Positions 3,335 to 30,118 of a stretch of 32,000 nucleotides of DNA are shown here, piece by piece. The position numbers and the translations under genes are program-made. The stretch is from assembly GCA_041659445.1 (NCBI GenBank), contig JBAZYG010000001.1:180001-212000 (forward strand), written 5' to 3'. Each line of letters opens with the position of its first letter. The stretch's first letter is position 1. The DNA comes from Candidatus Saccharimonadota bacterium (GTDB taxonomy: Archaea > Nanobdellota > Nanobdellia > Pacearchaeales > GW2011-AR1). The notes beneath the pieces were generated by a model that saw nothing but the letters and a program-made list of their open reading frames with translations, was not told the DNA's origin and searched no databases.

Positions 3335-5269
3335 ATGGATAATTATAAAAAAAAGAGGAAATTCAAAAAGAGGTTTATAATTTTTGGAGTTCTTTTATTA
3401 ATAATCGCTTTGGTCTTTTTGTTTACTCGAGCTTATCTTTATTTAAATTTCCTTTTGGGAAATGATATTGTAATAACTTTAAATGCAGATAAAAGTCATT
3501 TTTTTCTTAAACATGGTGAAAGCGAAACTGTTTCTTTAAAATCTCAAACTTTTGCAAATCCTTTTTGTAGTTTAGAATGCTCTTCAAGTTTTAAAAATTT
3601 AAATACTGGAGAAATTCTTGATGAAGATAGTTTTACTTTAAAATCAACTTTATCTTATACTCGAGAATACAATCTTACATCAAATAATATAGGGGCAGGT
3701 CAAGAGTTTTATAGATTTGAAATTAAATGTAAAAGCATAAAAAAGGTTCTTTGTCAAACAAGTGGTGAAGAAAAAACAAGAAATATTTTAGTGACTTTGG
3801 ATTATAATTTGAACGATTATGAACAAGAAATAAAAAATTCTTCTAAAGAGAACATTTCTTTAATATTTCAAGAAATAAATAATATGCAAGCAAATCTTAT
3901 AGAAATTAATGATAATTTATTAATTTTAGAAAAAAACGACACATCTAATCTTCTTTTTAATGACATAAATAATCTTTCTAATTCTATAAATATTTTGAAT
4001 CAAACTTGTTTTTATCTAATAAATTTATGGGAAAATGAAAGTTATTCAAATCTTGAACAAGAAATGTTTGGATTTGACGAAGATTTTCAAAAAGTTAAAA
4101 CTAATTTTGCAAATGTAAATGAAACTTTTTATTTTCTTACTTTTGAAAATAATCTTTTGTTTAACAATTTTACTTATGCAAGAGAAGGATTAGAATCTTT
4201 AAAACAGCAAAATGTTTCTTTTAATGAAACACTTGAAATCAATTCTTTAATAAGCAAATTTAATCTTATTTCAGACAATGAAAGTAATTACAACGAAATT
4301 TATGGTTTGATTTTTGAAATAAATAATTTTAATATTAGCGGTGAAAAATGTTGTTATGCTTCTGGTTTTCTTTCTGAAGTTCCTATTTCTGAAATTTATT
4401 TAAATGAAATTAATGAATCTTATTCTCTTATTTTTAATGAAAAAAAACCTGTTTGTTGCTTTTTTGGAAAGTGCGAAGATTGTTCAAATAATGAAACTAA
4501 TTATCCAATAGTTTTTGTTCATGGACATAGTTTTAATCATAAAGTTTCTGCAGAATATAGTTTTGATTCTTTTGAAGAAATGCAAGAAAAATTAGAAGAA
4601 GATGGATTTATCAACGGAGGGACTTTAATTTCTGTTTCAAATTCTGAATCCGAGGGAGTTTTTGGAAAATTAAATTATCCTTTTACATTTAGAGTGAGTT
4701 ATTATTTTGATATTTTCAAAAGTTCAGATTCAGTAAAAGTAATTCAAACCAAAAAGGACAATATAGATACTTATGCTATTCGTTTGAATGATATTATTGA
4801 AGAAATTAAATTTCAAACTGGAAAAGATAAAGTAATAATTATTTCTCATAGCATGGGCGGAATTGTTTCTAGAAGATATATGCAAATTTTTGGTGAAGAT
4901 GATGTTTACAAATTTATTAGTATTGGTTCTCCACATCATGGAATAAGTAAAAAAATTTATGATTATTGTAAATTATTTGGAGCAACAGCAGAATGCGACG
5001 ATATGAAAGCCGATAGTTTGTTAATAAATAAAATTAATCAAGATATTTTGGAAGTTCCATCTTACAGCATTATTGGTGTTGGATGTGATATGAATGGTGA
5101 GGATGGAGATGGAATTGTCGAGAATTCAACTGCTTACTTGGATTTTGCTCAAAATTATTATATAAATGGTTCGTGTCCTGGAAATTTTGAATATTTACAT
5201 TTGGACATGGTTAAACCAGATAAGTATCCTGATGTTTATGAAATAATTGTAGAGATTTTAAAAGAATAA
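3335..5269 (+). CDS. Membrane-anchored extracellular alpha/beta-hydrolase (lipase / PGAP1-like C-terminal domain)
   Basis: N-terminal basic stretch plus TM helix (FIIFGVLLLIIALVFLF). A long N/S/E-rich middle region carries many N-x-S/T sequons and Cys pairs. The C-terminal hydrolase has the oxyanion string PIVFVHGHSF, the nucleophile elbow ISHSMGG (GxSxG type), GSPHHG and DGDGIV. Confidence 0.8.
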   Translation: MDNYKKKRKFKKRFIIFGVLLLIIALVFLFTRAYLYLNFLLGNDIVITLNADKSHFFLKHGESETVSLKSQTFANPFCSLECSSSFKNLNTGEILDEDSFTLKSTLSYTREYNLTSNNIGAGQEFYRFEIKCKSIKKVLCQTSGEEKTRNILVTLDYNLNDYEQEIKNSSKENISLIFQEINNMQANLIEINDNLLILEKNDTSNLLFNDINNLSNSINILNQTCFYLINLWENESYSNLEQEMFGFDEDFQKVKTNFANVNETFYFLTFENNLLFNNFTYAREGLESLKQQNVSFNETLEINSLISKFNLISDNESNYNEIYGLIFEINNFNISGEKCCYASGFLSEVPISEIYLNEINESYSLIFNEKKPVCCFFGKCEDCSNNETNYPIVFVHGHSFNHKVSAEYSFDSFEEMQEKLEEDGFINGGTLISVSNSESEGVFGKLNYPFTFRVSYYFDIFKSSDSVKVIQTKKDNIDTYAIRLNDIIEEIKFQTGKDKVIIISHSMGGIVSRRYMQIFGEDDVYKFISIGSPHHGISKKIYDYCKLFGATAECDDMKADSLLINKINQDILEVPSYSIIGVGCDMNGEDGDGIVENSTAYLDFAQNYYINGSCPGNFEYLHLDMVKPDKYPDVYEIIVEILKE

Positions 5270-13055: not shown

Positions 13056-16000
13056 ATGGTGAAAAAGTTTAAAATCTATTTGTTAATTTGTATAATATTA
13101 TTTGTGATTTTAATTGATTTTTTATCTGCAGAATCAATTTCTGATACTCTTCATTTAAACATTCAAACAACTTATTCAAATGGGACAATTCAACCTGGAA
13201 CTTTTACTTTTGTTTTTAATATAACTACAGATTCTGCATGTTCAAATGTTGTTTATTCAAATTCTTCAACCTTGACTACTGATTCAAGAGGAATTATTTC
13301 TTATTATCTTGAAAATGTAAATTTGAATTTTACAAATCAGTATTACTTATGTTATTACAGAGACGGTGTTTTGATTAATAATTCTAAAATTGCAAGAAGC
13401 CCATATTCTTTTACAACAAAAAACGCAACAGTTAGTGGATTAATTAAAGATGCTAATTTAAACATGACTGGATATAATATTAGTGCAGATTATTTTTCAG
13501 GGACAGGAGCAAATTTAACAGAAAATTTAACTATTGGGAAAAAAATCATTTTTGGATTTGGTGAAACAATTGATAATTTAGTCAGTGGTTGGATTAAAAT
13601 AACTGGAAGTGCTAATGTTACAGGAAGTTTAATTGTCAACGGAAATATTAATTCTACTACTGGAGATATTTGTATAACAGGAGGAAATTGTTTGAGTACA
13701 GTTGCTTCAGGAACAGAACCTTTATGGACAGCAAACTTTACTGCTTATAACACGTCGTGGAGTTCAACTTATAATTCAAGTTATGTTCCTTATACTGGCT
13801 CAACTGCGAATGTTAGTTTAGGAGCTTATAATTTCAGCGTCGGAGGAACTGATTTTTTTGTTAATTCAAATAAAGATTCAATTTCATCTGGAGGTTCAAC
13901 AGCTTCGGGATTATATTCTGTTGCTTTAGGTGAATCAAATATTGCTTCAGGAGATGATTCAGTATCTTTAGGTTATAGTAATACTGCTTCAGATACTGGT
14001 GCTGTTGCCATTGGTTATCAATCAACTTCTTCTGCACCTTATTCAACAGCCTTAGGATATATGACAACTGCTTCTGGACAAAAATCAACTGCTTTTGGTG
14101 CATCAACAATAGCGTCATCAGATTATGCAATTGCAATGGGTTATTCAACTATTGCATCAGGAACATATTCTACAGCAATTGGTAGAGGAATAAATGTTTC
14201 TGGTTCAAATTCTGTTGGTATTGGATTAAATGATCAATCAGGAACTGTTCTTAGTCAAGCAAATACAATGTCAATTATGGGTGGAACAGTTGGAATAAAT
14301 ACAACAGCTCCTAAAAATACTTTAAATGTCATCGGAACAGGAAATATAACTGGAAATGTAACTTCACAAACTGATTTTTGTATTGAAGGTGGAAATTGTT
14401 TAAGTAGTGCTGTTGGAAGTTTAGGAAATATTTCAGGAGGTGGAGTAGAAAATTATATTCCTAAATGGATTGGATCAGCAAGTTTAGGGAATTCACTTGT
14501 TTATGATAATGGAACTTATGTTGGTATTGGAACAGCAACTCCAACATATCTTCTCGACGTGAATGGAAGTGGAAATATTGTGAATGATTTTAGAGTTGGA
14601 AATGATTTATTTGTTACAGGTTGGGTAAATTCAAGTGAAGATGTTTGCATTGTTGGAGGAAATTGTTTGAGTACAGTTGCTTCAGGAACAGAACCATTAT
14701 GGACTGCTAACTTTACTGCTTATAATTCTTCTTGGTCATTTACTTATAATGCAACTTATGACTCTTATAATTCAACTGGATTAATTAAAGATTGGAATTC
14801 TTCGGGTTTAATAATAAATTGGAGTACTGAATCTGGAATTGAATCTGATCCTTTATGGACTGCTAACTTTACTGCTTATAACTCGTCGTGGTCTTCAACT
14901 TATAATTCAAGTTATAATACTGCTTATAATTATACAATAAATGGGACATTTATGAGGAAAGATGGAGACAATGGTACTGGAGTTTATAATTTTGGAGGAG
15001 CTTGGAACGACGGAGGATTAACAATTTCTAATGGAAATTTGTATGCTCAAACTGTTTATGTTTATAATATAACTTCTTTGCAAGTTTCAAATTTAAACAT
15101 TAATGGTTCTTTAATTCCGCAAATTGGTTTTGATAATACTTTTGATGTTGGAAGTTCTTCATTAAGATGGAGAGATTTATACGTCGGTAGAAATATTTTT
15201 TCAAATGGAAGTATTAATGTTGATTCAGGAGGAGATATTTGTATTGTTGGGGGAAATTGTTTGTCAACATCTGGAACAGGTTCTGGAACAATTACAGGAG
15301 CTGGAACAGCGACGTATGTTCCCTTATGGAACGGAACTTCTTCGTTGAATAACTCAGTGATTTATCAAAATGGAAGTAAAATTGGAATTAATACCACTAT
15401 TCCGACAGCGACATTAGATGTTAATGGAAATATTCATGCTTCAGATATTTTTGCAACAGATGTTATTTCTGGAAGCACTGTTGGTTTTGTTTCAGTTGGT
15501 TTAGGTGGTTCTATTGGTGCACATAAAACTAATTATGATGCTAAAATTACCTTTCCTGAAACAGATGATATTTCTATTTATACAGGACTTTCTGGAGAAT
15601 TATTAAGAATTTCTGGGGATGATGGTGCTGTTGGAATTGGCGAATCAATTCCAGTGTATAAATTAGAGATTAAGGGAGTTCCTATGCCCTTGGAAACACC
15701 GTCGGGTAATGGTTATTTTGGAATAACTAATATTTCAGATGGAGATATTTTAGAAATTGATTATTCTGGGAATGTTGGTATAAATACTTCAACTCCACAA
15801 AATAAATTAAATGTCGTCGGAGATGGAAATTTTACAGGAAATTTATATTCTAATGGAGCACAAGTTTTAACATCTTATACTGAAACAGAACCATTATGGA
15901 CAGCAAACTTTACTGCTTATAACACGTCGTGGAGTTCAACTTACAATTCAACATATGCAAATTGGAATAAAACTTATGCTGATACTTTATATTCATCAAT

Positions 16001-17594
16001 CTCAGAACCTTTATGGACAGCAAACTTTACTGCTTATAACACGTCGTGGAGTTCAACTTATAATGCAAGTTATGATGCAAAATTAAGTGGAGTAGGAACT
16101 TCAGGTTATATTGCTGCGTGGAATGGAACTTCTTCGTTGAATAATTCAATTATTTATCAAAATGGAACTACCTTAAATATTTCTGGAAATATCTTTGTTC
16201 AAGGCGGTTCTGGAGATGTGAATAGTAATGGTGCTGTTAATTCAGCTGATTCATTATGGGTTAAACAATATTTAGCAGGAGCAGTTAATTTAACTGCAAA
16301 GCAATATGCAGAAGCAGATGTAAATGGAGATGGAAGAGTTGATTATTCAGATGTAGATTTAATTGAGCAAAAACTTACTGTTGAAGGATTGCCTTTAAAT
16401 GAAGTTCAAAGAGAAGGAAAAAGAGCTGTTGATTCAGCATATTTTATTGATTATGACAAAGATTTTGGGATAGGAAATTATTTTTCTGATGCTGGAGATT
16501 ATAATCTTACAAGTAAACTTTATGTTAATGGAACAGGAAATATCACACAAGATTTTTATGTTGGAAATGATTTAATTGTTACAGGTTGGGTAAATTCAAG
16601 TGAAGATTTTTGTATTGTTGGAGGAAATTGTTTAAGTAATAGTGCAGATGTTTCAGAACCTTTATGGACTGCAAACTTTACTGCTTATAACACGTCGTGG
16701 AGTTCAACTTATAATTCAAGTTATGTTCCTTATACTGGCTCAACTGCAAATGTTACTTTAGGAGATTATAATTTTTCAGTTGGGACTTCTGATTTTTTTG
16801 TTAATGCGGATTTAAGTTCAATTTCGTCTGGGGCAAGCTCAACAGCTTCGGGATTATATTCTGTTGCTTTAGGATATGTATCAACAGCTTTAGGGCCTTC
16901 TTCAGTAGCTGTTGGGAATCATGCATTCTCTTCAGGTGATTCTTCAATAGCATTAGGGCATTATACAAATGCTTCAGGTGATTCTTCAATAGCATTAGGT
17001 GATTTAACAAATGCTTCAGGAGCTTCTTCAACAGCGACTGGTTTTGCAACAACAGCTTCGGGATTTTTATCAACAGCAATGGGTAGAGAAATTATTGCAG
17101 GAGGAGATTATAGTTTTGCTATTGCATTGAATGATCAAAATAATTTGAATGTTTCTCAAGCAAATACAATGGCAATTATGGGGGGAAATGTTGGTATTGG
17201 AACAGCGACTCCTAATTCTATTTTAACAACTAAAGGAAATAATGTTTCATTTTTATCTGTTGGTGGAGAAAAAAGATTTTATTTTTTATCAAACGCAGAT
17301 GGTAATGAAGCTGTTTTTACAATGTATGATTTTTCAGAAACTGCAAGAATTTATTTGAATACTTATTCAGATAGTTACCTTAATGTTCCAACTGGAAAAT
17401 TTGGTATTAATACTTCAGCTCCTAAAAATACATTAAATGTTGTCGGAGATGGAAATTTTACTACAAATCTTTTTGTTGGAAGTAATATAACAACAGAAAA
17501 ATTAGTTTTTGAAACAAGTGCTTCTCATTACATCGACGATAATTCAACTTGTGTTAAAATTTACGGAAGTACAAGTATTTTAGAAATATGTTAA
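13056..17594 (+). CDS. Giant secreted mosaic fibre/adhesin-like protein (1512 aa): YadA-head-like repeats, tail-fibre-like motifs, embedded dockerin
   Basis: Sec-type signal (MVKKFKIYLLICIILFVILIDFLSA|ES). Two blocks of 14-residue xSxAxGxxxxASGx repeats. Five [DE]xCIxGGNCLS Cys-pair motifs. Recurrent (V/I)GI(G/N)TxxPxxxLxVxGxGN strings. Six EPLWTANFTAYNxSWSxTYN repeats. One dockerin-like double Ca-loop segment. Very high N-x-S/T density. Confidence 0.9.
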   Translation: MVKKFKIYLLICIILFVILIDFLSAESISDTLHLNIQTTYSNGTIQPGTFTFVFNITTDSACSNVVYSNSSTLTTDSRGIISYYLENVNLNFTNQYYLCYYRDGVLINNSKIARSPYSFTTKNATVSGLIKDANLNMTGYNISADYFSGTGANLTENLTIGKKIIFGFGETIDNLVSGWIKITGSANVTGSLIVNGNINSTTGDICITGGNCLSTVASGTEPLWTANFTAYNTSWSSTYNSSYVPYTGSTANVSLGAYNFSVGGTDFFVNSNKDSISSGGSTASGLYSVALGESNIASGDDSVSLGYSNTASDTGAVAIGYQSTSSAPYSTALGYMTTASGQKSTAFGASTIASSDYAIAMGYSTIASGTYSTAIGRGINVSGSNSVGIGLNDQSGTVLSQANTMSIMGGTVGINTTAPKNTLNVIGTGNITGNVTSQTDFCIEGGNCLSSAVGSLGNISGGGVENYIPKWIGSASLGNSLVYDNGTYVGIGTATPTYLLDVNGSGNIVNDFRVGNDLFVTGWVNSSEDVCIVGGNCLSTVASGTEPLWTANFTAYNSSWSFTYNATYDSYNSTGLIKDWNSSGLIINWSTESGIESDPLWTANFTAYNSSWSSTYNSSYNTAYNYTINGTFMRKDGDNGTGVYNFGGAWNDGGLTISNGNLYAQTVYVYNITSLQVSNLNINGSLIPQIGFDNTFDVGSSSLRWRDLYVGRNIFSNGSINVDSGGDICIVGGNCLSTSGTGSGTITGAGTATYVPLWNGTSSLNNSVIYQNGSKIGINTTIPTATLDVNGNIHASDIFATDVISGSTVGFVSVGLGGSIGAHKTNYDAKITFPETDDISIYTGLSGELLRISGDDGAVGIGESIPVYKLEIKGVPMPLETPSGNGYFGITNISDGDILEIDYSGNVGINTSTPQNKLNVVGDGNFTGNLYSNGAQVLTSYTETEPLWTANFTAYNTSWSSTYNSTYANWNKTYADTLYSSISEPLWTANFTAYNTSWSSTYNASYDAKLSGVGTSGYIAAWNGTSSLNNSIIYQNGTTLNISGNIFVQGGSGDVNSNGAVNSADSLWVKQYLAGAVNLTAKQYAEADVNGDGRVDYSDVDLIEQKLTVEGLPLNEVQREGKRAVDSAYFIDYDKDFGIGNYFSDAGDYNLTSKLYVNGTGNITQDFYVGNDLIVTGWVNSSEDFCIVGGNCLSNSADVSEPLWTANFTAYNTSWSSTYNSSYVPYTGSTANVTLGDYNFSVGTSDFFVNADLSSISSGASSTASGLYSVALGYVSTALGPSSVAVGNHAFSSGDSSIALGHYTNASGDSSIALGDLTNASGASSTATGFATTASGFLSTAMGREIIAGGDYSFAIALNDQNNLNVSQANTMAIMGGNVGIGTATPNSILTTKGNNVSFLSVGGEKRFYFLSNADGNEAVFTMYDFSETARIYLNTYSDSYLNVPTGKFGINTSAPKNTLNVVGDGNFTTNLFVGSNITTEKLVFETSASHYIDDNSTCVKIYGSTSILEIC
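13716..13784 (+). repeat. EPLW repeat copy 1 (EPLWTANFTAYNTSWSSTYNSSY)
   Basis: In-frame 69-nt unit. Near-identical at the DNA level to copies 4, 5 and 6. Confidence 0.9.
13908..14189 (+). repeat. YadA-head-like (Hep_Hag-type) 14-residue repeat block 1
   Basis: GLYSVALGESNIASGDDSVSLGYSNTASDTGAVAIGYQSTSSAPYSTALGYMTTASGQKSTAFGASTIASSDYAIAMGYSTIASGTYSTAIGRG has the periodic S/T-x-A-x-G pattern of left-handed beta-roll adhesin heads. Confidence 0.7.
14691..14759 (+). repeat. EPLW repeat copy 2 (EPLWTANFTAYNSSWSFTYNATY)
   Basis: In-frame 69-nt unit, more diverged at synonymous sites. Confidence 0.9.
14847..14915 (+). repeat. EPLW repeat copy 3 (DPLWTANFTAYNSSWSSTYNSSY)
   Basis: In-frame 69-nt unit. 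Confidence 0.9.
15888..15956 (+). repeat. EPLW repeat copy 4 (EPLWTANFTAYNTSWSSTYNSTY)
   Basis: In-frame 69-nt unit. Its core, atggacagcaaactttactgcttataacacgtcgtggagttcaactta, is identical to copy 5. Confidence 0.9.
16005..16073 (+). repeat. EPLW repeat copy 5 (EPLWTANFTAYNTSWSSTYNASY)
   Basis: In-frame 69-nt unit, 117 nt downstream of copy 4. Confidence 0.9.
16215..16376 (+). other. Dockerin-like domain (two EF-hand-like Ca-binding loops) inside the 1512-aa protein
   Basis: DVNSNGAVNSADSLWVKQYLAG...ADVNGDGRVDYSDVDLIEQKL has two DxNxDGxxxxxD loops, each followed by a helix. This is the duplicated segment architecture of type I dockerins. Confidence 0.75.
16656..16724 (+). repeat. EPLW repeat copy 6 (EPLWTANFTAYNTSWSSTYNSSY)
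   Basis: In-frame 69-nt unit. It begins a stretch (16656-16755) that shows 2 mismatches in 100 nt against 13716-13815. Confidence 0.9.
16851..17090 (+). repeat. YadA-head-like 14-residue repeat block 2
   Basis: GLYSVALGYVSTALGPSSVAVGNHAFSSGDSSIALGHYTNASGDSSIALGDLTNASGASSTATGFATTASGFLSTAMGRE shows the same periodicity as block 1. Confidence 0.7.
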
Positions 17595-17595
17595 A

Positions 17596-20500
17596 ATGGT
17601 TAATATTAAATCAAAAAAAAAGTTTTTTTTATTTTTGTTAGTCGTAACTTTTTTTATAATTCTTTTTGAAATTAGCTCGACTTCTGCTTGGCTTACTGGA
17701 TATGATTACAGAAAACAAATTAATCTTACTGGAGGAACTAATGCAGGAAATGATTATCAAATAAAATTAACAATAGGAAATACATCAGGAGGAGATTTTA
17801 ATTTAGGTGGAAATGCAACAAATTTTCCAAATGATATAAGATTTACAGATGACGACGGAGAAACACTCTTGCCCTATTGGATTGAAAATACAACAAGTCC
17901 AGCAATTTTTTGGGTTAAAGTAAATGATTCTCTTAATTCAAATCAAATTATTTATATTTATTATGGAAACTCAACTGTTTCAAGTGCAACTAACGGAACT
18001 GCGACTTTTGTAATGTTTGATGATTTTGAAAGCACTGCTTTAAATGCAGTCCCAGATTCAAGCAAATGGGTAATTACTGGAACAGACGCAAACGATAATG
18101 TAACTATTTATTTAGACCCAGCAAATGCTTCAAATCAAGTTGCAAGGACAATTGAACAAATTGATGGAGTTGGAACAAGATTATGGGTTAAAAATCTTAC
18201 TTCAAGTAATTATTCTTTTGATTTTGATTATAGAACAAGTGTAAATAGAGTTTATTATTTTTACATATATGATGGTGCTACTATTAGGACAACTATGAAT
18301 CTTGATACTACATTTCATTGGTATAATGGGGCAGCTTATCAAAATTTTGCCCCAGCAACTCCATCTCATTCTACAAATACTTGGTACGATACCGAAATAT
18401 TTGTAGCAGGACCTTTTTTAAATATGACTATTAATGGAGTAAATTATAAAGGAGGAGTTCGTTCAAATGCAACAGCATCAGTTACCTCATTAGTGATGAA
18501 TCCACATACTGCAAGTTTAACTCCTCCATTATACCAATATGTTGATGATTTTAGAGTAAGAAAGTTCTCTATGAATCCTCCAGTATTAAGTGCTGTCGGA
18601 GGACAAGAATTAATTCAAGGATTGACCTGTGGAAACTTATCTGATGGAACTTATACACTCACACAAAATGTAACAAGTAACACTACTTGTTTTATAACAA
18701 ATTCTACAAATGTTATTCTTGATTGTCAAGGATTTTATATTTATGGAAATAATTCTCCATCTTCTTATGGAGTATATTCAAATTATCCCAATACCACAGT
18801 TAAAAATTGTAATATTTTTAATTATTCTTCAGGTATAATTTTAGACAGCAATGCAAATTCAACATTAGAAAACAATACTATAAATGTTACTTTTAGCTCG
18901 GGTTCTGATGATTATGGAATTAAATTGGGTTCTGGAGTAAATTCAACAACTAAAAATAATATAATTAATGGTTCAGGAACAAATATTTATGCTTATATGT
19001 CTTATGCAATAAATAGTTCTTCAATTAATGACACAATATTTGTCCCTTCGGGTAGGGCTTCATTTTATTCCGTTGGAACTACAATGAATCAAGTTTTTAA
19101 TTTCACAAAACTAAATGGGAAAGGAGTAATATTTTATCAAGGAAATCCTTCATTTTACAATTTAAAAATGAATACAACTTCAGGTTCATCTATGGATTTA
19201 CCAAGAAATATTACCTTAAAAAACATAACAATAAATACAAATGGAGATGCTGATGCTGTAACAATATCAGGTGTAGGCGTTCATTTAGATTGTGAAAACG
19301 GAGTAATTAATGGTTCAAATATAGCATCAAGAAGTGGAGTATATTCTTCAGTAGGAAATGCTAAAATTAAAAATTGCAATATAAATAATTTCAATTATTG
19401 TATTAGGATATATGGAGGTATGAATAATTCTGTTGAAAATATTATTGCAACAACATCTTATAATGGTGGGATTCCATTAAATATTTATTTTCAATCAAAT
19501 TATACTCTTGTGAATAATTTCACAGGTTCAGCTCTTGTTAATGGTTTTGGTTTATCAATTCAATATTCAAGCCATAATGTAATTAATAATTCTAACTTTA
19601 ATTCACTTGGAGGTAGAGGAATTTATTTTTATGGTTTAATTGGAACAGGTTTAACTTTAAATAACACCCTAAACAATTCTTCAGGGAATTCTTCTTCAAA
19701 TTATGGAATTCAACTTTCAAGTTCTAATGATAATCTTATTTATAATTCCAATGGTTCAAGTAATACCTTAACAGGAATAGATTTAACAGATTCAAGTAAT
19801 AATTATTTTAATAATATAATTGGAAATTTAACAAACAATCCTACATCAACAGGTGACGGAATTACTCTCGAATCTAATTCAATAAATAATACTTTTGAAA
19901 ATTCTTTTGCAATATCAAACTCTCAAAAGGTAGATTCTTACAATTCTGCTTTTAGAATTTTTTACAGCAATAATAACACTCTTAATAATGTCACAGCAAA
20001 TGTTACAGGAATTAATGCAACAGGGATTTCCTTATATTCTTCAAATTATACTTTAATTAATGGTTCTGTTGGAGATAGCAACAATTTTAATAATTCGGGT
20101 TCAGGTATGCTGTTATCAAATTCAAGTCATAATGTACTTAATAATTCTGTTGCAATAAGTGGTCTAGGAAATGGGGCTTTGGGATTAAATACAAATAGTA
20201 ATTATAATAATATTGTAAATTTTATTGGAATTGCAAACTCAACTGAATATGGATGCAAATCTGTTGAGCCAAAATTAACTAACAACGTTGCCATTTTCAT
20301 AACAACAAGTAGTAGTTATAATAATTTAACAAATGTTTCAGGTTATAGTCGAAGTGAAGACGGAATTGCATTTTATAATAATTCTGCAAACAATATTGTA
20401 AATAATAGTTTGGGTTTAACTTATTCAAGTGTTGGGATTTTATTAACCAATTGGGCGTCTGATAATCAAGTTATTAATAGCACAGCAATCGCAATGGGTG

Positions 20501-21315
20501 GTTCTTGTGGAGGTGGAAAAGCATTTGGTATTGCAGATAATTCAAGTAGAAATAATATAACTAATATAACAGCAATTCAATATGGTGCTGTTTCAACAGA
20601 TGGGGCTTTTTTTATACGATGCATTGGGGCAACAGCCGAATGTCATCCTAATTTTAATAATACAGTAATTAATTCTAAAATTTTAATTTACAATTCTACA
20701 AATGGTATTTCAATAACAGACAATTCAACAGGAAATGTAATAAGAAATATTTCAATAAATTCAACATATACTTCTTCAACATTAAGTTTGCTAAAAGTTA
20801 ATTCATCAAATAATGTTTTTTGCTTAAACAATTTTACAAGTAATCTTGGAATTTATATAAATGATTCAAATGGAAGCAATACTTATAATTGCTCTTATGG
20901 TGGAAAGGTTCAAGGAAATATTTATGAAAATGTGAATAATGGAACAATAAATGTTCTCGGTTCAGAAAATTCTTCAATAGCAAATTACTATATTGGAAAA
21001 TATGGTTCTGGATATCCTTATAATCAAACAAATTCTTTAAATAAAATCTATGGTGCGGTAGACTACGTTCCTTTAACAATTTATTTAACTTCTTGCGCTT
21101 ATTCTGGTTCTGGAAATTGGGTAATAAATTGTTCAGAAAATTGCACCATATTAAGTAATACAGATGTAGTGGAAAATAATATTTCTATACTTGGAGTAGG
21201 AACTTTTAGAACTTCTGCAAATATAACTGGTTTTAGTAAATTAATAATTGCAGGAATAGATTCTTCAAATATTTGTAGAGTTACTTGTTTTGATGGGGGA
21301 TGTTTTAAAGATTAA
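17596..21315 (+). CDS. Secreted giant protein (1239 aa): DUF2341-like N-domain, LamG/concanavalin-like region, long right-handed parallel beta-helix (PbH1) repeat array
   Basis: Signal peptide (...ISSTSA|WLTG). WLTGYDYRKQINLTGG...NFPNDIRFTDDDGETLLPYWIE...FWVKV...IYIYYGN matches the DUF2341 signature as I recall it. From about aa 340 to 1100 there are tens of about 22-aa N-rich repeats of the type NxxxNNxIxNxxxGIxLxxSxxN. The start is 1 nt after the previous stop. Confidence 0.9.
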   Translation: MVNIKSKKKFFLFLLVVTFFIILFEISSTSAWLTGYDYRKQINLTGGTNAGNDYQIKLTIGNTSGGDFNLGGNATNFPNDIRFTDDDGETLLPYWIENTTSPAIFWVKVNDSLNSNQIIYIYYGNSTVSSATNGTATFVMFDDFESTALNAVPDSSKWVITGTDANDNVTIYLDPANASNQVARTIEQIDGVGTRLWVKNLTSSNYSFDFDYRTSVNRVYYFYIYDGATIRTTMNLDTTFHWYNGAAYQNFAPATPSHSTNTWYDTEIFVAGPFLNMTINGVNYKGGVRSNATASVTSLVMNPHTASLTPPLYQYVDDFRVRKFSMNPPVLSAVGGQELIQGLTCGNLSDGTYTLTQNVTSNTTCFITNSTNVILDCQGFYIYGNNSPSSYGVYSNYPNTTVKNCNIFNYSSGIILDSNANSTLENNTINVTFSSGSDDYGIKLGSGVNSTTKNNIINGSGTNIYAYMSYAINSSSINDTIFVPSGRASFYSVGTTMNQVFNFTKLNGKGVIFYQGNPSFYNLKMNTTSGSSMDLPRNITLKNITINTNGDADAVTISGVGVHLDCENGVINGSNIASRSGVYSSVGNAKIKNCNINNFNYCIRIYGGMNNSVENIIATTSYNGGIPLNIYFQSNYTLVNNFTGSALVNGFGLSIQYSSHNVINNSNFNSLGGRGIYFYGLIGTGLTLNNTLNNSSGNSSSNYGIQLSSSNDNLIYNSNGSSNTLTGIDLTDSSNNYFNNIIGNLTNNPTSTGDGITLESNSINNTFENSFAISNSQKVDSYNSAFRIFYSNNNTLNNVTANVTGINATGISLYSSNYTLINGSVGDSNNFNNSGSGMLLSNSSHNVLNNSVAISGLGNGALGLNTNSNYNNIVNFIGIANSTEYGCKSVEPKLTNNVAIFITTSSSYNNLTNVSGYSRSEDGIAFYNNSANNIVNNSLGLTYSSVGILLTNWASDNQVINSTAIAMGGSCGGGKAFGIADNSSRNNITNITAIQYGAVSTDGAFFIRCIGATAECHPNFNNTVINSKILIYNSTNGISITDNSTGNVIRNISINSTYTSSTLSLLKVNSSNNVFCLNNFTSNLGIYINDSNGSNTYNCSYGGKVQGNIYENVNNGTINVLGSENSSIANYYIGKYGSGYPYNQTNSLNKIYGAVDYVPLTIYLTSCAYSGSGNWVINCSENCTILSNTDVVENNISILGVGTFRTSANITGFSKLIIAGIDSSNICRVTCFDGGCFKD

Positions 21316-21316
21316 A

Positions 21317-22510
21317 ATGAAAATTGGAAATTTATTTTTTGTTTTTTTTATTTTTCTTTTTTCAATTTTAACTTTTGTAATTGTTTCAGCAGATGTTATT
21401 TCTGTTAATTCAGGAGGAAGTGAAAATGTAATAATAACTGCAGATAAATATCTTGAAGGTTTTTTCTTTTCTTCAAGAGACATTAATAATTTACCGAGCA
21501 ATCCTTTAAATGTAAAATTGGTTTCCTTGAATGGAAGAAATGAGTCAGATACTGATTTGAATTGTTCAGGATATATTACTGACGTTGAGAATTTGACTTT
21601 GACAGTATATGTAGATTGGATTAAAGATGATAATTCACAATTTATTCAAGTTTTTGAAAATCAATTAAACAATTCTGTGTTTTCAACTTTGTTAAATAAT
21701 GGAAATTTAAGTTTAGGAGATGTTTGGAAATGTTCATTGAAAGTTTCTGATGGAGAATATAATAGTAGTTGGATTGACTCAAATGAATTAACTATTATTG
21801 ATATAACAAATCCAAATGTAACAATTGTTCATCCAAATTCTTCTGCTAATTACACAAGTTTAGATATTGATTTCAATATTTCGATTTCTGAAAATGAAAA
21901 TATTTCTTGGTGTGGTTACAGCGTCAATGGAACAGCGAATGTAACAATGATTAGATTAAATGATTCTTATTTTTGGCATGAACCCCCAAACTTAACAGTT
22001 GGATTAAATAATGTAACTTTTTATTGTAATGATACTTCTGGAAATTGGGGAACAAATTTCACGAATTTTACAATTTTAGACGAGGCTGCAATTGCAATTC
22101 AATTGTCTCCTGCATTAAGTTTAACTGTTAATTGGACTTTGGAAAGTTTGCCTGCTAATGATTTGAACGCAGAAGGAAATAATTTAACTGGAGATACTTT
22201 GTATTGGGTAAATTTATCTGTAACTGCAACTACTGCAGATTTATACGTGAAAGCCGACGGAGATTTGCAAACTTTAGATTTAGATATTCTTGGTTTAGGA
22301 AATGAAACTTTTTGTGCAAATTTAACAAATTCTTCTGTTCCTGATTTAAATAGATTGATTATGAATACAAGTTATGTTTTAATTGCTGAAGATCTTCCTA
22401 GTAGTATAATTTATTTGAAATTTTATCTTGATGCTCCGTCGGGACAAGCAGCAGGAACTTATTTGAATAATTTAGATTTCAAAGCAGTAAATCATGGAAA
22501 CACTCCTTAA
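21317..22510 (+). CDS. Secreted three-domain protein; its C-terminal domain is paralogous to the 22586 and 23847 proteins (candidate tip or adaptor subunit)
   Basis: I prefer ATG 21317 (MKIGNLFFVFFIFLFSILTFVIVSA|DV), 1 nt after the upstream stop. The ORF-track start 21290 is a TTG and 21293 is an in-frame ATG, both overlapping the previous gene. Two beta-sandwich-like N-domains are present (GDVWKCSLKVSDGEY; WCGYSVNGTANVTM...VTFYCNDTSGNWG). The C-terminal part is ADLYVKADGDLQTLDLDILGLGNETF...LKFYLDAPSGQAAGTYLNNLDFKAV. Confidence 0.85.
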   Translation: MKIGNLFFVFFIFLFSILTFVIVSADVISVNSGGSENVIITADKYLEGFFFSSRDINNLPSNPLNVKLVSLNGRNESDTDLNCSGYITDVENLTLTVYVDWIKDDNSQFIQVFENQLNNSVFSTLLNNGNLSLGDVWKCSLKVSDGEYNSSWIDSNELTIIDITNPNVTIVHPNSSANYTSLDIDFNISISENENISWCGYSVNGTANVTMIRLNDSYFWHEPPNLTVGLNNVTFYCNDTSGNWGTNFTNFTILDEAAIAIQLSPALSLTVNWTLESLPANDLNAEGNNLTGDTLYWVNLSVTATTADLYVKADGDLQTLDLDILGLGNETFCANLTNSSVPDLNRLIMNTSYVLIAEDLPSSIIYLKFYLDAPSGQAAGTYLNNLDFKAVNHGNTP

Positions 22511-22585
22511 TTTTTTAAAAGAAATTAATTTCACTAGAAAAAATAAATCTTTATAAAGTATATTCTCTTATTTAAATCAATTAAT

Positions 22586-23203
22586 ATGAAAAAGAAAGGT
22601 GTGATATTTTATCGTTTGATTTTGATTTTAATTCTTTTAGCAGTTATTGTTTTATTAATTGTTCAAAATCTTCCTAAAGTTACTGGAAATTCAATTACTG
22701 GTTTTGCAACAAGTGGAAATACTACTTCAAATGTTACAATTACTTCTTATTTATCAATTGCGTTTTGTGATAATTTATCTACAGGAATTTGGTTTGGAGA
22801 AGTTGCAAGTTTACCTGTAACAAATCAAAATGGAACACATAATGCAGATGGTGCTAGTAGTGGAAGTACTTATTGTTTGAATGTTTCTGCTGATTCAAAT
22901 ACAAATGTTGATTTTTGTACAAAAGCAAGTGGAAATTTGACAACAACCGGAGCAGATGTTATTGTTTTAGCAAATGAAACTTGGAATAATGCAACAACCA
23001 CAGATGCAACAACTCCATCTTATGCTACTGAAAATATTTTGACAACAGATTATGTCAAATCCGGTGGTAATGTTGCTAGCGACGGTACTGGTGTCAATTA
23101 TTACAGATTCTGGTTAGATATTCCAGGTGGACAAGCAGCAGGAACATATAATAATACTGTATTTTTCAAAGGAGTAAATACTGGAAATCCATGTGGTGCA
23201 TAA
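22586..23203 (+). CDS. Small sequon-rich secreted/anchored protein, paralogue family member (205 aa)
   Basis: The N-terminus MKKKG-VIFYRLILILILLAVIVLLIV is a basic leader plus a 22-residue hydrophobic helix. It also has SIAFCDNLSTGIWFGEV, NVSADSNTNVDFCTKASGNL, LANETW and YYRFWLDIPGGQAAGTYNNTVFFKGV. There are about nine N-x-S/T sequons. It has its own TATA-like ctttataaag upstream. Confidence 0.85.
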   Translation: MKKKGVIFYRLILILILLAVIVLLIVQNLPKVTGNSITGFATSGNTTSNVTITSYLSIAFCDNLSTGIWFGEVASLPVTNQNGTHNADGASSGSTYCLNVSADSNTNVDFCTKASGNLTTTGADVIVLANETWNNATTTDATTPSYATENILTTDYVKSGGNVASDGTGVNYYRFWLDIPGGQAAGTYNNTVFFKGVNTGNPCGA

Positions 23204-23210
23204 AATTAAA

Positions 23211-23840
23211 ATGAAGAAAAAAAAGGTGACATTCGTTGAGAAAATTTTGTTTTTAAGTTTAGTCTTGACTTTGATTTTACCTTTGGCAACTGCAGGTGTT
23301 GGTGTTAAATGGAGTAAAGAATCTTCTTTAGTTTCAGAAAATTCAAAAGTTTGTATGTCTTATGATGTTTATAATCCATGGCCACAAGATACTTATGCTA
23401 CAATTAGTTTATCTCCGGAATTAATGGAAATTATTGATTATATTGGTTCAGATATTGTTTTCCTTCCTAATGAGACATCAAGTACAAATGCTATTCCTGT
23501 TGAATTTTGTTTTAAAACACCAAAAGTTTATGAAAAAGATTGTTGGGTTGGAGATGTATTTTTTTGTAAGCAAGATTGTTTAGAAGAAATGAAAACTTAT
23601 GAAGGTGAAGTGTTGGTAATGGAAACTTCTCCAGATCAATCATCTCAATCTGCACAAGGTTCTGCTACTAAAATGTCTGTTTCTGCACCTTTGAGAATTA
23701 GAGTTCAATGTGAAGCACAAAATAGAAATTTCAGTGCATTGTATGTTCTTGTTGGACTTATTGCATTAATATTATTGATAATAAATTTAGTTAAAAACAA
23801 GAAAAGCAAGCAAAATAAAAAGATTAAGAAAAAGAAATAA
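23211..23840 (+). CDS. Type I membrane protein: signal peptide, Cys-containing beta-rich ectodomain, C-terminal TM anchor and poly-Lys tail
   Basis: I prefer ATG 23211 (MKKKKVTFVEKILFLSLVLTLILPLATA|GVGVKW). The track start 23193 is a GTG overlapping the upstream gene. The C-terminus is ALYVLVGLIALILLIINLV-KNKKSKQNKKIKKKK. Confidence 0.8.
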   Translation: MKKKKVTFVEKILFLSLVLTLILPLATAGVGVKWSKESSLVSENSKVCMSYDVYNPWPQDTYATISLSPELMEIIDYIGSDIVFLPNETSSTNAIPVEFCFKTPKVYEKDCWVGDVFFCKQDCLEEMKTYEGEVLVMETSPDQSSQSAQGSATKMSVSAPLRIRVQCEAQNRNFSALYVLVGLIALILLIINLVKNKKSKQNKKIKKKK

Positions 23841-23846
23841 AATCAT

Positions 23847-24431
23847 ATGATTTCTAAAAATCAAATTTTTTATAAGACTTTTTTGATTGTGATAATTTTT
23901 TTATGCGTTATCTTAATTATTTTTCAAAATTCAAATAATTTTACTGGAAATTATTTATTAAATACTACATCTAATGTTTCATTATTTAAATATTATTCAA
24001 TTGCGTTTAGTGATAATTTGTCTTCTGGAATTGAATTTGGAACAATAGAAAATCTTCCTGCAGTTAGTGTTAATGCAACATATAATTATTTGGGTTTGAG
24101 TAATTCAACAGAATATTTTATTAATGTTTCAAATGATTCAAATACAAATATTGATTTTTGCATAAAAGCCGACGGAGATTTAGAAAGTATTGCAAGTGAT
24201 ATTTTGGGATTAGGAAATGAAACTTATAATAATGCAACATTCACTAATTTATCCTCGCCCTCGGATACAGAGGTTTTGTTGACGACTTCTTATGTTAAAT
24301 CAGGAAGTAATGTTTTAATTGGTGGAGTAAATTATTATCGTTTTTGGCTTGATGTTCCATCAGGACAAGCAGCTGGAACATATAACAATACTGTTAATTT
24401 CAAAGCAGTTGAAACAGATTATTCTTGTTAA
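23847..24431 (+). CDS. Small sequon-rich secreted/anchored protein, paralogue family member (194 aa)
   Basis: The N-terminus MISKNQ-IFYKTFLIVIIFLCVILIIF is homologous to that of the 22586 protein. It also has SIAFSDNLSSGIEFGTI, NVSNDSNTNIDFCIKADGDLES..DILGLGNETY and YYRFWLDVPSGQAAGTYNNTVNFKAV. There are about a dozen sequons. Confidence 0.85.
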   Translation: MISKNQIFYKTFLIVIIFLCVILIIFQNSNNFTGNYLLNTTSNVSLFKYYSIAFSDNLSSGIEFGTIENLPAVSVNATYNYLGLSNSTEYFINVSNDSNTNIDFCIKADGDLESIASDILGLGNETYNNATFTNLSSPSDTEVLLTTSYVKSGSNVLIGGVNYYRFWLDVPSGQAAGTYNNTVNFKAVETDYSC

Positions 24432-24469
24432 TTAGAAAGCATTAAAAATCTGAAATTATTATTTTCTTT

Positions 24470-25930
24470 ATGATTAAAAAAGAGGTGTTTATTTTTATCT
24501 TTATTTTTTGTGTATCTCTTGTGTTTGCAATAACTGGTTATGTTACAGAAGGAAATTCTCCGTCATCAGTTACTATTGAAGGTTTGAGAATTGTTTATTC
24601 TACTTTTAATGGTTCTACAACTAATTTTAATTCCTTGAATACATCTGAATTAAATAATTTATCATTGATGACTTTAGAAAAATCTAGTTATGGTAAAGTT
24701 ATTTTTAATCAAAGTGTTAATTTGACTTTAACTGCAGGAGTGGATAAAATTGTTAATTTTGATTTGGATTTGAACATTTCTAATAATTTAATTTATATTG
24801 ATGATTCGGATTTACCTTATTTAAATAAAACAGTTACTATGTTTTTATATGGTCTTAGTTATACAAATCCAAGGATAATTCATAATGGTGTTGTTTGTAG
24901 TGATTGTACTAAATTAAGTTATTCTGGAGGTAATTTAACTTTTTCAGCAACTACTTTTAGTGGAACTTATTATGCACAAGAAACTCCTGTTTCTCCTGTA
25001 TGTGGAAATGGTGTTTGTGAATCTGGAGAAACTTCTACTAGCTGTTCTGCAGATTGTGGAAGTGGTGGTGGAGGCGGTGGAGGGGGAGGCGGAGGCGGTG
25101 GTGGAGTTACTCCTCCGATGACAACAGGCGTTAGTTTTTACATTGTTCCAGATTTTTTAGCAATTTCAATGTATAGAGGAGAATATTTTCAAAAAAATAT
25201 TATTATTGTTAATAACGGAACCGAGGATTTAATAATTGGAGCATTTGTTTCAGGATTAGATAAATTTGTTTTTCCTCAAGAAGAAATATTTGAAGTTAAA
25301 GCTGGACAAAATTATACTTTAAGATTAAATATTTATGTTTCTAGTTCAACAAATATTGATGTTTACGTCGGTAAGGTTTTATTTCAATCAAAATCACTTG
25401 ATAAAAGTATTAATTTTATTTTAGATGTTAAAGAAAAAGGGGCGTTATTTGACATTAGAACAAATGTTACAAAAAGATATGTTCCTCCAGGAAGAGATGT
25501 TCTTGCAAAAATTTTAATTATAAATAAAGGAGAATTAAGAAATTTTGATGTTTCTTTAGAATATAAAATTTTAGATTTTGAAAATAATAGTTATATGCCC
25601 AAACAAGAAGATTTTGCAATAAATGAAACTTTTGCAAATACCTTTTCCTTGCATGTTCCTTCTGATCTTCCAATTGGACAATATTTATTCTACGCTAAAG
25701 TTAATTATGGAAATGTTAGTGCAACTAGTTATGATACATTTATTGTTGAAACAGTTTCATTTTGGTCTTGGATAATTTTAATAATAGTTATTATAATTTT
25801 GATTGCAATAATCTTTTTTATCTTGAGAAAAAGGAAAAAGAAAAAAGAAGGGAAACTTAAACCAAAATCATTTTTTAAGAAACCTTCTTTAGTTAAAAGA
25901 AAATTAAGATATCCTAAAATAAATGAATAA
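24470..25930 (+). CDS. Type I membrane surface protein: Cys-knot-like CGNGVCE module, poly-Gly linker, CARDB/COG1470-like beta-sandwich domains, C-terminal TM anchor
   Basis: Signal peptide (FIFCVSLVFA|IT). PVCGNGVCESGETSTSCSADCG is followed by 14 consecutive Gly. Then come IIIVNNGTEDL... and LIINKGELRNFDVSLEYKI, which are CARDB-like strand patterns. The C-terminus is WSWIILIIVIIILIAIIFFIL-RKRKKKKEGK. Confidence 0.88.
   Translation: MIKKEVFIFIFIFCVSLVFAITGYVTEGNSPSSVTIEGLRIVYSTFNGSTTNFNSLNTSELNNLSLMTLEKSSYGKVIFNQSVNLTLTAGVDKIVNFDLDLNISNNLIYIDDSDLPYLNKTVTMFLYGLSYTNPRIIHNGVVCSDCTKLSYSGGNLTFSATTFSGTYYAQETPVSPVCGNGVCESGETSTSCSADCGSGGGGGGGGGGGGGGVTPPMTTGVSFYIVPDFLAISMYRGEYFQKNIIIVNNGTEDLIIGAFVSGLDKFVFPQEEIFEVKAGQNYTLRLNIYVSSSTNIDVYVGKVLFQSKSLDKSINFILDVKEKGALFDIRTNVTKRYVPPGRDVLAKILIINKGELRNFDVSLEYKILDFENNSYMPKQEDFAINETFANTFSLHVPSDLPIGQYLFYAKVNYGNVSATSYDTFIVETVSFWSWIILIIVIIILIAIIFFILRKRKKKKEGKLKPKSFFKKPSLVKRKLRYPKINE
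25064..25105 (+). repeat. GGN codon tract encoding 14 consecutive glycines
   Basis: ggtggtggaggcggtggagggggaggcggaggcggtggtgga. By eye this is the most GC-rich patch in the window. It is low-complexity and imperfectly repetitive. Confidence 0.9.
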
Positions 25931-29192: not shown

Positions 29193-29729
29193 ATGAAATA
29201 CATCATTGTTTATTTAATAAGGGGCGAAGCAGGGAAATATCATAAGATGCTTGTTAATAATTTCTCTAAGAAATTTAAGATAAAGAACTTAAATTATCAT
29301 ATTCAAACACATATTACGTTAAAGTATCCTTTTGAAACTAAAAATATTAAAGATATTGAGAAAGTTTTGATGAATTTTTCTAAAGTGCAAAAATCATCAT
29401 TAATTAAAATTAAAAAAATTGGACATTTTAGAAACCATGTTCTTTATCTTAAAACAGAATTTTCTAAAGATTCCAAATTGTTATTTTCGAATTTAATAAA
29501 AATTTTGATAAATATTCCTAGAATGAGAGAGAGGAAAATAGATTTGATTGCTAGAGATAATTTTCATGCAACTTTAGGATATGCAAAAAGTGAAGTGCAA
29601 TTTAAGGAAATGTGGGATTTTCTTAAAACTAAGCATTTTAAATTTAATGTTCTTTTTGATAACATAACTATACTTAAGAAAAATGATAAAGATAGATGGA
29701 GGATTCATAAAATCTTTGAAATAAAATGA
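29193..29729 (+). CDS. 2H phosphoesterase superfamily protein (LigT / 2'-5' RNA ligase-like)
   Basis: Two HxT/Sx motifs, HITLKY and HATLGY, with about 80 residues between them. I prefer ATG 29193 (MKYIIVYLIRGEAG...), which has a TATA-like atttttaaac about 25 nt upstream. The track start 29136 adds a hydrophobic, non-conserved-looking extension. Confidence 0.75.
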   Translation: MKYIIVYLIRGEAGKYHKMLVNNFSKKFKIKNLNYHIQTHITLKYPFETKNIKDIEKVLMNFSKVQKSSLIKIKKIGHFRNHVLYLKTEFSKDSKLLFSNLIKILINIPRMRERKIDLIARDNFHATLGYAKSEVQFKEMWDFLKTKHFKFNVLFDNITILKKNDKDRWRIHKIFEIK

Positions 29730-30118
29730 AATATGAATATGCTTCAGATTTACAAGAACTTGCAGAGGATATTTCTAAGAAATTGTTTCCTCACGTGATA
29801 ATGGATAGAGTTAAATGTTATAGGGGTTATGGGACAAGTTCACAAGGAACTATTGCAAGATGTCATACAATAAATAAACTGGTTCAAAAAGCACTTGGAA
29901 TAAAAGCTTATTATATTTTGGAATTTCTGTCTGAAAGGTTTGATAAGTTGCCTAAAGAAGAACAGATTAAAATAATCATTCATGAATTAATGCATATTCC
30001 CAAGACTTTTGGAGGCGGTTTTAAACATCATGATTTCGTTACAAATAAAAATGTAAATAGTCATTATAAATTATATGTCAATTTAAAAGAAAATGAAAAA
30101 AATAAAACTTGGTTTTAA
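29726..30118 (+). CDS. Predicted small Zn metallopeptidase (HExxH)
   Basis: IIIHELMHIP contains HExxH, followed by GGGFKHHD. The size and layout resemble the small archaeal 'predicted metallopeptidase' family (COG4900-like, from memory). ATGA start/stop overlap with the upstream gene. Confidence 0.7.
   Translation: MKYEYASDLQELAEDISKKLFPHVIMDRVKCYRGYGTSSQGTIARCHTINKLVQKALGIKAYYILEFLSERFDKLPKEEQIKIIIHELMHIPKTFGGGFKHHDFVTNKNVNSHYKLYVNLKENEKNKTWF

Follow-up and report, generated by a model that had tools for sequence, protein, structure and literature searches.

The window analysed here is a 32,000-nucleotide (nt) stretch of a DPANN genome (contig JBAZYG010000001.1, positions 180,001 to 212,000), a fragment of about 27% GC in which all genes between positions 13056 and 27160 lie on the plus strand with short gaps between them. 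Within this run lie five plus-strand genes (21317-25930) that are considered here as candidates for a membrane-anchored surface assembly. Four of them, spaced by 6-75 nt, had been grouped as a surface-filament module (21317-24431) in an earlier note made from the sequence letters, and open reading frame (ORF) calling places them as given there: A397 (21317-22510), the large paralogue, which is of 397 aa and not 398 as had been counted; B205 (22586-23203), a small subunit of 205 aa; anch209 (23211-23840), of 209 aa; and C194 (23847-24431), a small subunit of 194 aa. The extent of the module was drawn too short, however, and missed p486 (24470-25930, 486 aa), a fifth conserved member recognised by hhalign and locus comparison. 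A YGR210-type GTPase gene follows p486 in the same-strand run.

The shared domain and its two partner proteins

A397, B205 and C194 are adjacent paralogues that do carry, as the note held, a common domain of about 150 aa, C-terminal in all three; in BLASTP A397 and C194 are 43% identical over 161 aa (E=1e-26), and B205 and C194 are 53% identical (E=2e-69). The motifs quoted for this domain, SIAF, LP, NVS...DFCIKA.GDL, LGNETY and YRFWLDVPSGQAAGTYNNTV.FKAV, are all found in the three-paralogue alignment and kept in 42-284 homologues, and a hypothetical protein identical to C194 exists in a Candidatus Pacearchaeota metagenome-assembled genome (MAG). A397 consists of a cleavable signal peptide (..VSA before the cut and DVISVNSGG after it), an N-terminal region of about 220 aa and, at about aa 250-397 (nt 22064-22507, plus strand, from the alignment), an A-type variant of the domain (YLKFYLDAPSGQAAGTYLNNLDFKAV) that is free of Cys and follows the pattern YLKF(Y/F)L.AP..Q.AG.Y.N.L.FKAV..GQ.P. 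B205 begins with a hydrophobic helix and a TGFA motif, continues through an extension (TSGNTTSNVTITS, nt 22709-22747, plus strand) into the shared domain, and has a conserved Cys pair that includes its C-terminal residue. C194 has helix 4-29, a TGNY motif, the aligned extension (LLNTTSNVSLFK, nt 23955-23990, plus strand) and an eight-strand beta domain at 49-189, with Cys105 and the C-terminal Cys194.

Members of the small-subunit family start with a basic stretch and then a hydrophobic helix about 22 residues long, followed by a nearly invariant (I/L)TG-x-(A/V), which fits the -3/-1 pattern of a signal peptidase I site, and the segment T-E-G-x-T-T-S-N-V-T-I-x-K lies between this TG-x-A site and the first strand. 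Two Cys of the small subunits, C105 and the terminal C194, are nearly invariant; the A-type proteins have neither. Mutual information (MI) and mean-field direct coupling analysis (DCA) of 281 sequences couple the two residues, and this coupling, with their near-invariance, indicates a predicted intramolecular disulfide; the same analysis recovered strand A and the C-terminal strand as a pair and did not place the extension. In the short A-type proteins, which lack any anchor, the signal is cleavable and the mature N-terminus is kept as (V)SAD(I/V)ISINSGG....I(I/V).P....EGFF (window 21317-21480; loci L003-L007, L014, L017, L032, L036 and L048), another alternating strand-like motif.

No Pfam or NCBIfam family was matched at threshold by A397, B205, anch209 or C194, nor in scans of 42 small-subunit, 40 anch209 and 31 p486 family members, and PDB profile searches with the three families returned chance matches only, bar a weak one of Nup116 to the p486 N-domain. 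The claim that the domain belongs to an undescribed family is thus borne out by the lack of any Pfam, NCBIfam or PDB sequence match to it. The likeness to pilins suggested in the note stood only in part. None of the sequence families named there is reached at threshold: fimbrial, SCPU and DUF4402 assignments all fail, DUF4402 appearing in 1 of 42 members at E 0.015, and no sequence match to the Saci_0406 thread family was obtained in the PDB profile search. Membership in TasA/camelysin (Peptidase_M73) was rejected, with no Pfam, NCBIfam or PDB sequence match. Sortase or archaeosortase pili (LPXTG/PGF-CTERM) were likewise rejected: the subunits end in a conserved Cys, bear no sorting motif, and have no sortase in their loci. 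The fold, in contrast, is weakly Ig-pilin-like. An AlphaFold2 (AF2) model of C194 from a 42-sequence alignment (pLDDT 91) shows helix 4-29 followed by an eight-strand beta-sandwich, with segment 31-50 at low confidence and the conserved residues 38-48 outside any strand. Foldseek against the PDB gave no match below E=1e-3; the list runs from 1.5e-3 to 7e-2 with TM-scores of 0.3-0.55 (0.35-0.55 when normalised by target) and is dominated by chaperone-usher pilins (CfaB, CupE, FimA, CsuA/B, PapA, Caf1), the Sulfolobus thread 7pnb being a weak entry (E 1.1e-2, TM-score 0.35). This is suggestive of an Ig-like pilin-type topology in the modelled domain.

The interleaved protein anch209 has the membrane topology that had been read from its sequence. 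Its AF2 model (40-sequence alignment, pLDDT 81) has a signal helix at 8-26, a beta domain at 31-166 with a disordered Gly-rich loop (144-151), a transmembrane helix at 175-208 and a Lys-rich tail, and its six Cys are invariant. Foldseek matches are stronger than for the shared domain and fall in the PapD-like/MSP superfamily (E 1.5e-5 to 1e-3, target-normalised TM-scores 0.55-0.69): MSP and VAP/Scs2 at 1.5e-5 to 1e-4, the HYDIN PapD-like domain at 2.8e-4, the pilus chaperones CfaA (2.5e-4), Caf1M (8.9e-4) and SafB, and the WxLIP of Enterococcus faecium (9i1y, 2e-4). No PapD_N or PapD_C Pfam match was found in anch209, which contains one PapD/MSP-like domain and a transmembrane helix instead, and none of the 40 family members matches WxLIP_PGBD or DUF3324. 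The model makes the protein a candidate membrane-tethered chaperone or cap, and the role of anchor, chaperone or assembly platform proposed earlier appears reasonable for such a fold joined to a membrane helix.

The fifth protein, p486, is composed of a signal helix followed by ITGYV, a strand motif (TEGNSPSSVTIE, nt 24545-24580, plus strand), an N-domain, a Cys-rich DUF4215-like segment and a poly-Gly linker, and in its C-terminal half of two Ig-like domains, a transmembrane helix and a Lys-rich tail. The small-subunit profile aligns with its N-terminus over 16 columns (hhalign probability 89%, E=2e-6). Beyond this 16-column motif hhalign gave no confident alignment of p486 with the small subunits, either globally or between the extended shared domain and the N-domain, and it detected no relationship of the shared domain to anch209 or to the Ig domains of p486. 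Of the ORFs in the loci, 438 have a hydrophobic helix at the N-terminus, and a census of these found the combined motif TG-x-A...S-x-V-x-[IV] in 49 of 89 small subunits and 15 of 51 p486 homologues, and in none of 214 other proteins, 61 anch209 homologues or 20 A-type proteins; TG-x-A alone occurs in 17 of the 214 other secreted proteins. Along the p486 strand one face is kept, with S/T in 44/46 (96%), V/I/L in 43/46 (93%) and I/V in 46/46 (100%), while the intervening positions vary and the sequon Asn is present in 19/46; conservation alternates in the same way in the small subunits. For the S-x-V-x-I segment, a retained face with variable alternate positions favours a putative partner-packing beta-strand over a glycosylation signal, and p486 is a candidate base anchor or terminator.

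Other similarities of p486 are sub-threshold. Its N-domain (24614-24979, aa 49-170) resembles the Nup98/Nup116 autopeptidase S59 (Pfam Nucleoporin2 in 21 of 31 members, best E 2.5e-4) and weakly matches PDB 3nf5 (Nup116, E 0.0048); the end of the domain, ..TFSGTYY, is loosely like an HFS cleavage site, and its Ser is not conserved. The two Ig-like domains, which are membrane-proximal (25100-25760, aa ~215-430), give scattered matches to HYDIN_VesB_CFA65-like_Ig, Cep192_D3/D4 and Ig_VWA7, families of the PapD-like clan, and to WxLIP_PGBD, by which p486 may itself resemble a two-domain tethered chaperone.

Distribution and conservation of the cassette

The small-subunit family has 93 close homologues, and an exhaustive profile search finds the shared domain in at least 739 representative clusters at E<=1e-3, of which 476 remain at E<=1e-10. 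A genome scan with locus ORFs assigned by phmmer yielded 67 loci, nearly all in MAGs of Pacearchaeota, Woesearchaeota, Nanoarchaeota and Aenigmatarchaeota, and 63 of these loci contain a small subunit. The co-occurrence of subunit and anchored partner, which the note had put forward as a check in DPANN genomes, is found: an anch209 homologue adjoins a small subunit in 58 of the 61 loci with room for it. Homologues of p486 are present in 47/57 loci and an A-type gene lies upstream in 37/53. The commonest order is A, small, anch209, p486, and it recurs in about 60 DPANN genomes; the number of small subunits is one in 40 loci, two in 19 and three in four (n=63). All-against-all clustering of the 63 loci revealed no further family conserved with the cassette, and no ATPase, usher-like protein, sortase or peptidase; the remaining recurrent neighbours are housekeeping genes in conserved synteny. 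Nor is there a large beta-barrel of the outer-membrane usher type among the three conserved families of these loci.

In the large proteins the shared domain is always C-terminal, behind regions that otherwise vary (387-3174 aa in total length) and carry beta-helix, LamG-like and other modules. Several giant A-type proteins of 2234-3088 aa (L009, 684-9950; L010, 1521-9773; L025, 3088-9792) begin with a conserved cytoplasmic motif, MAYKRY.YRNGK.FGPYYY.SYRD, and then a transmembrane helix, and these giants may be anchored N-terminally with the shared domain at the far C-terminus. At L059 (10675-14877) lie divergent small proteins of 195 and 201 aa with TG-x-A plus a V-N-F-T-I N-terminus (hhalign 66% to the family), adjoined by a 315-aa Cys-rich transmembrane protein that starts ISGKATAASGQVSF; the set looks like a variant cassette. 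P0140 (698 aa) joins a small subunit head-to-tail to a p486 homologue, which may be a genuine fusion or a missed stop codon. A further p486 homologue, 47% identical over half its length, is found at L070 (JAYENP010000043.1, labelled Patescibacteria) next to genes for a Mur ligase, a PBP transpeptidase, an archaeal-type YGR210 GTPase and a PhageMetallopep protein. The last two also flank the cassette in Pacearchaeota, and the locus suggests mis-binning or a DPANN genome with murein-type genes.

The cassette comprises three unannotated protein families, those of the shared domain, anch209 and p486, and no description of it in DPANN was found in the literature. It adds to a known kind, the Ig-like, strand-complemented surface assemblies with membrane-tethered PapD-like partners.

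Proposed assembly, known systems and alternatives

The fixed order and strict co-occurrence of the three families over about 60 genomes argue for a physical interaction of the proteins they are predicted to encode. We propose, at a probability that we put a little short of even, that genes 21317-25930 encode a DPANN strand-complemented, membrane-anchored surface fibre or stalk, the mechanism of which we infer as follows. Signal peptidase would cleave the small subunits at TG-x-A and so free the strand S-x-V-x-I, which would join the beta-sandwich of the next subunit in a donor-strand-type complementation. Chained in this way, the subunits would form a fibre or stalk in which the small ones are links or shaft, and the large variable proteins would attach through their shared domain in a distal position. 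The strand of p486 would go to the last subunit, its C-terminal helix fixing the assembly in the membrane, and anch209 would hold or cap subunits at the membrane in the style of a tethered chaperone. Neither an usher nor an ATPase would be required for assembly, and the likely role would be contact with a host or a surface.

The nearest relatives in organisation were not among the systems named in the note, which lacked both the Pam pili of the candidate phyla radiation (CPR) and the WxL clusters of Firmicutes. Pam pili, from the CPR member Ca. Mycosynbacter amalyticus, are usher-free and consist of donor-strand-exchanging Ig-like pilins; their PapD/FimC-like chaperones bear a C-terminal transmembrane helix, a transmembrane-anchored protein with an extra N-terminal strand is proposed as fibre terminator and anchor, and they are reported from CPR only (bioRxiv 10.64898/2026.03.03.709456). 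Like a Pam-type operon, the cassette pairs a membrane-anchored PapD-like protein with a membrane-anchored protein carrying an extra N-terminal strand, a correspondence of architecture only. The two systems are alike further in an ultrasmall episymbiont lineage without outer membrane, Sec signals on all components, Ig-like subunits with a short donated strand (in the cassette by our reading), some proteins with extra N-terminal domains before the acceptor domain, C-terminally tethered PapD-like proteins, the multidomain character of the strand-bearing membrane protein, paired cysteines, and the absence of usher and ATPase. They differ in that the cassette is archaeal, with sequences unrelated as far as seen and no Pam protein among the 50 best Foldseek matches of the shared domain; its small subunits have one domain, against two in PamA and PamB; the Ig domain of anch209 is single; its large partners can exceed 3000 aa; N-glycosylation sequons are dense; and its assembly is a proposal. 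A fuller version of our reading, in which DPANN archaea own an usher-free, chaperone-assisted donor-strand pilus, with a transmembrane strand-donor anchor, terminal adhesins that reach about 3000 residues and a role as link to the host, as an archaeal counterpart of Pam, convergent or anciently shared and built from a family without known relatives, we regard as doubtful.

Chaperone-usher pili (Fim, Pap, Csu, CFA/I, Caf1) provide the best fold matches to the shared domain, and anch209 resembles CfaA, Caf1M, SafB and the PapD-like superfamily; a variable-head protein combined with single-domain subunits is common to both. The cassette differs from them in the lack of an usher, an outer membrane and sequence similarity, in its membrane-anchored chaperone-like protein of one domain, and in the direct pairing of the A and C-terminal strands seen by DCA, as opposed to an open A-F groove. 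The Sulfolobus threads (Saci_0406/0405), whose subunits have a Sec/SPase I signal, an N-terminal tail strand and heavy glycosylation and whose cap has a tail but no acceptor site (PMC9715654), belong to the general class of TasA and archaeal bundling pili and are comparable in the archaeal host, Sec/SPase I signal, tail strand, beta-rich head, dense N-glycosylation, tail-bearing partner without acceptor and lack of dedicated machinery. The match of threads to the DPANN domain, however, is the weak one in fold given above, with none in sequence; the DPANN subunits have no conserved N-terminal Asp for isopeptide bonds, and threads have neither a membrane-anchored PapD-like partner nor giant proteins carrying the domain.

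Several findings weigh against the proposed fibre. The Foldseek matches of the shared domain are weak, and beta-sandwiches are common. By DCA, strand A lies in cis against the strand at the C-terminus (K48-E189, Y50-A187), so that the classical chaperone-usher-type groove between A and F strands may be absent here, and the core of the extension has no strong couplings. Within loci, the p486 motif covaries weakly with that of the subunits (15.7 versus 14.7+-0.5; 114 of 5000 shuffles), with phylogeny as a confounder, and anch209 holds one Ig domain where PapD has two. The note had taken the segment after the N-terminal helix as a candidate donor strand and A397 as a tip adhesin beside shaft subunits. 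The domain does end very large adhesin-like proteins elsewhere, which suits a variable head on a common attachment domain, but the region of A397 before its shared domain aligns with the small-subunit extension, so the large paralogue is not clearly acceptor-only and its label as tip is uncertain. The single small subunit of 40 of the 63 loci is compatible with a short adaptor instead of a polymer. There is, finally, a subunit class of about 290 aa (P0157, P0159, P0166, P0180; L059, 9569-10447; L061, 8975-9802) with a 95-aa predicted cytoplasmic coiled-coil before the helix, in whose loci anch209 is followed by the subunit and no p486 or A-type gene was detected; a cytoplasmic N-terminus means that the helix of this class may be a permanent anchor and not a cleaved signal.

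The prevalence of single small subunits also suits an arrangement like that of the WxL clusters of Lactobacillales and Bacillales, where a small and a large WxL protein together with a transmembrane-anchored Ig-like WxLIP form a surface complex (PMC10599100). The shared domain would then be an attachment module, perhaps completed by a strand of its partner, and a short fixed complex of one small and one large protein with the membrane-anchored Ig-like partner or partners would tether the large adhesin to the cell membrane without any polymer, a possibility that we consider rather unlikely overall. The architectures correspond one to one: each has a small protein of the domain alone, a large one in which the domain comes last, behind host-binding domains, and an Ig-like protein with a transmembrane helix at its C-terminal end. 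The fold of anch209 matches WxLIP 9i1y, in Firmicutes the WxL sandwich is predicted by AF2 to be completed by a strand of WxLIP (PMC10599100), and the short A-type proteins, whose signal is cleavable, lack an anchor. Yet the WxL motif and Pfam family are not found (PF13731, none of 42 members matching at E up to 10), the matches to WxLIP_PGBD are all scattered and below threshold, and WxL binds peptidoglycan, which DPANN lack. WxLIP moreover has two Ig domains, and a WxL cluster has no component like p486, whose possession of the small-subunit strand motif is left unexplained, as are the up to three small paralogues of a locus.

The proteins might instead be independent membrane-anchored glycoproteins that exchange no strand, their helices being uncleaved signal anchors, their genes clustering as an envelope layer and TG-x-A...SNVTI serving as a membrane-proximal processing or glycosylation signal or as a cis hairpin. 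The coiled-coil class hints at a type II anchor of this sort, N-V-T/S is a sequon, a T40-A53 DCA coupling in the small-subunit family hints at a hairpin, and TG-x-A alone is seen in those 17 other secreted proteins. This explanation is improbable in view of the sequon Asn being kept in fewer than half of the p486 strands while the alternate S/V/I face is retained; it would anchor p486 at both ends, it sits badly with the short A-type proteins, whose signal is of the standard cleavable type and which lack any further anchor, and the three-family co-occurrence in fixed order points to interaction. Type IV pilin-like subunits, with the hydrophobic N-terminal helix as filament core, are effectively refuted. 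The helix does precede a beta domain, and the start of B205, MKKKG-VIF, superficially resembles a class III signal, but across homologues no [KR][GA] cleavage motif is conserved before the helix, a linker of about 20 residues with the conserved TG-x-A site comes after it, the 63 loci lack a FlaI/PilB ATPase, a PilC/TadC platform and a prepilin peptidase, and the same domain is C-terminal in giant proteins.

DPANN archaea are ultrasmall, mostly uncultured and dependent on contact with host cells, and the molecules of that contact are largely unknown. A cassette that keeps its position in Pacearchaeota, Woesearchaeota, Nanoarchaeota and Aenigmatarchaeota, and alone recurs as a partner of their giant and fast-evolving surface proteins, is a concrete and testable candidate for an attachment apparatus. 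If strand exchange is true, both domains of life, specifically through the episymbiont radiations CPR and DPANN, would have pili for which membrane-tethered PapD-like proteins suffice, and at least three new protein families (shared domain, anch209 and p486) would be available for annotation. By analogy, the logic of the cassette would be that of Pam and chaperone-usher pili, built from unrelated sequences in an archaeon.

Neighbouring genes in the window

Upstream of A397, and separated from it and from each other by 1-nt gaps, are the genes of two giant secreted proteins of 1512 and 1239 aa (13056-21315, plus strand). By Pfam scan the former has YadA-head repeats and a dockerin and the latter DUF2341 and a beta-helix; neither has the shared domain, and both are probably displayed cargo or adhesins. 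The YadA-head repeats of the 1512-aa protein (13056-17594) occupy seven stretches (E 3e-31) and its dockerin is of type I (E 6.5e-13); no cohesin was recognised near this archaeal YadA-head/dockerin protein.

The density of N-x-S/T sequons per 100 aa is 4.4-6.5 in A397, B205, C194 and the giants (6.5 in A397, 5.0-6.3 in the giants), 1.0 in anch209 and 0-1.5 in cytoplasmic proteins. Judged from their sequences, proteins of the A397, B205 and C194 types are proposed to be Sec-exported and heavily N-glycosylated.

Elsewhere in the window, a 644-aa protein (3335-5269) has 17 N-glycosylation sequons and 15 Cys besides a lipase/alpha-beta-hydrolase domain, and is likely a secreted lipase of a host-dependent archaeon. 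In about 23 loci the PhageMetallopep-domain gene (29726-30118 in the window) keeps synteny with the genes of the GTPase, of Kae1/TsaD and of ribosomal proteins, and here it has the look of a housekeeping gene, not of a prophage remnant.

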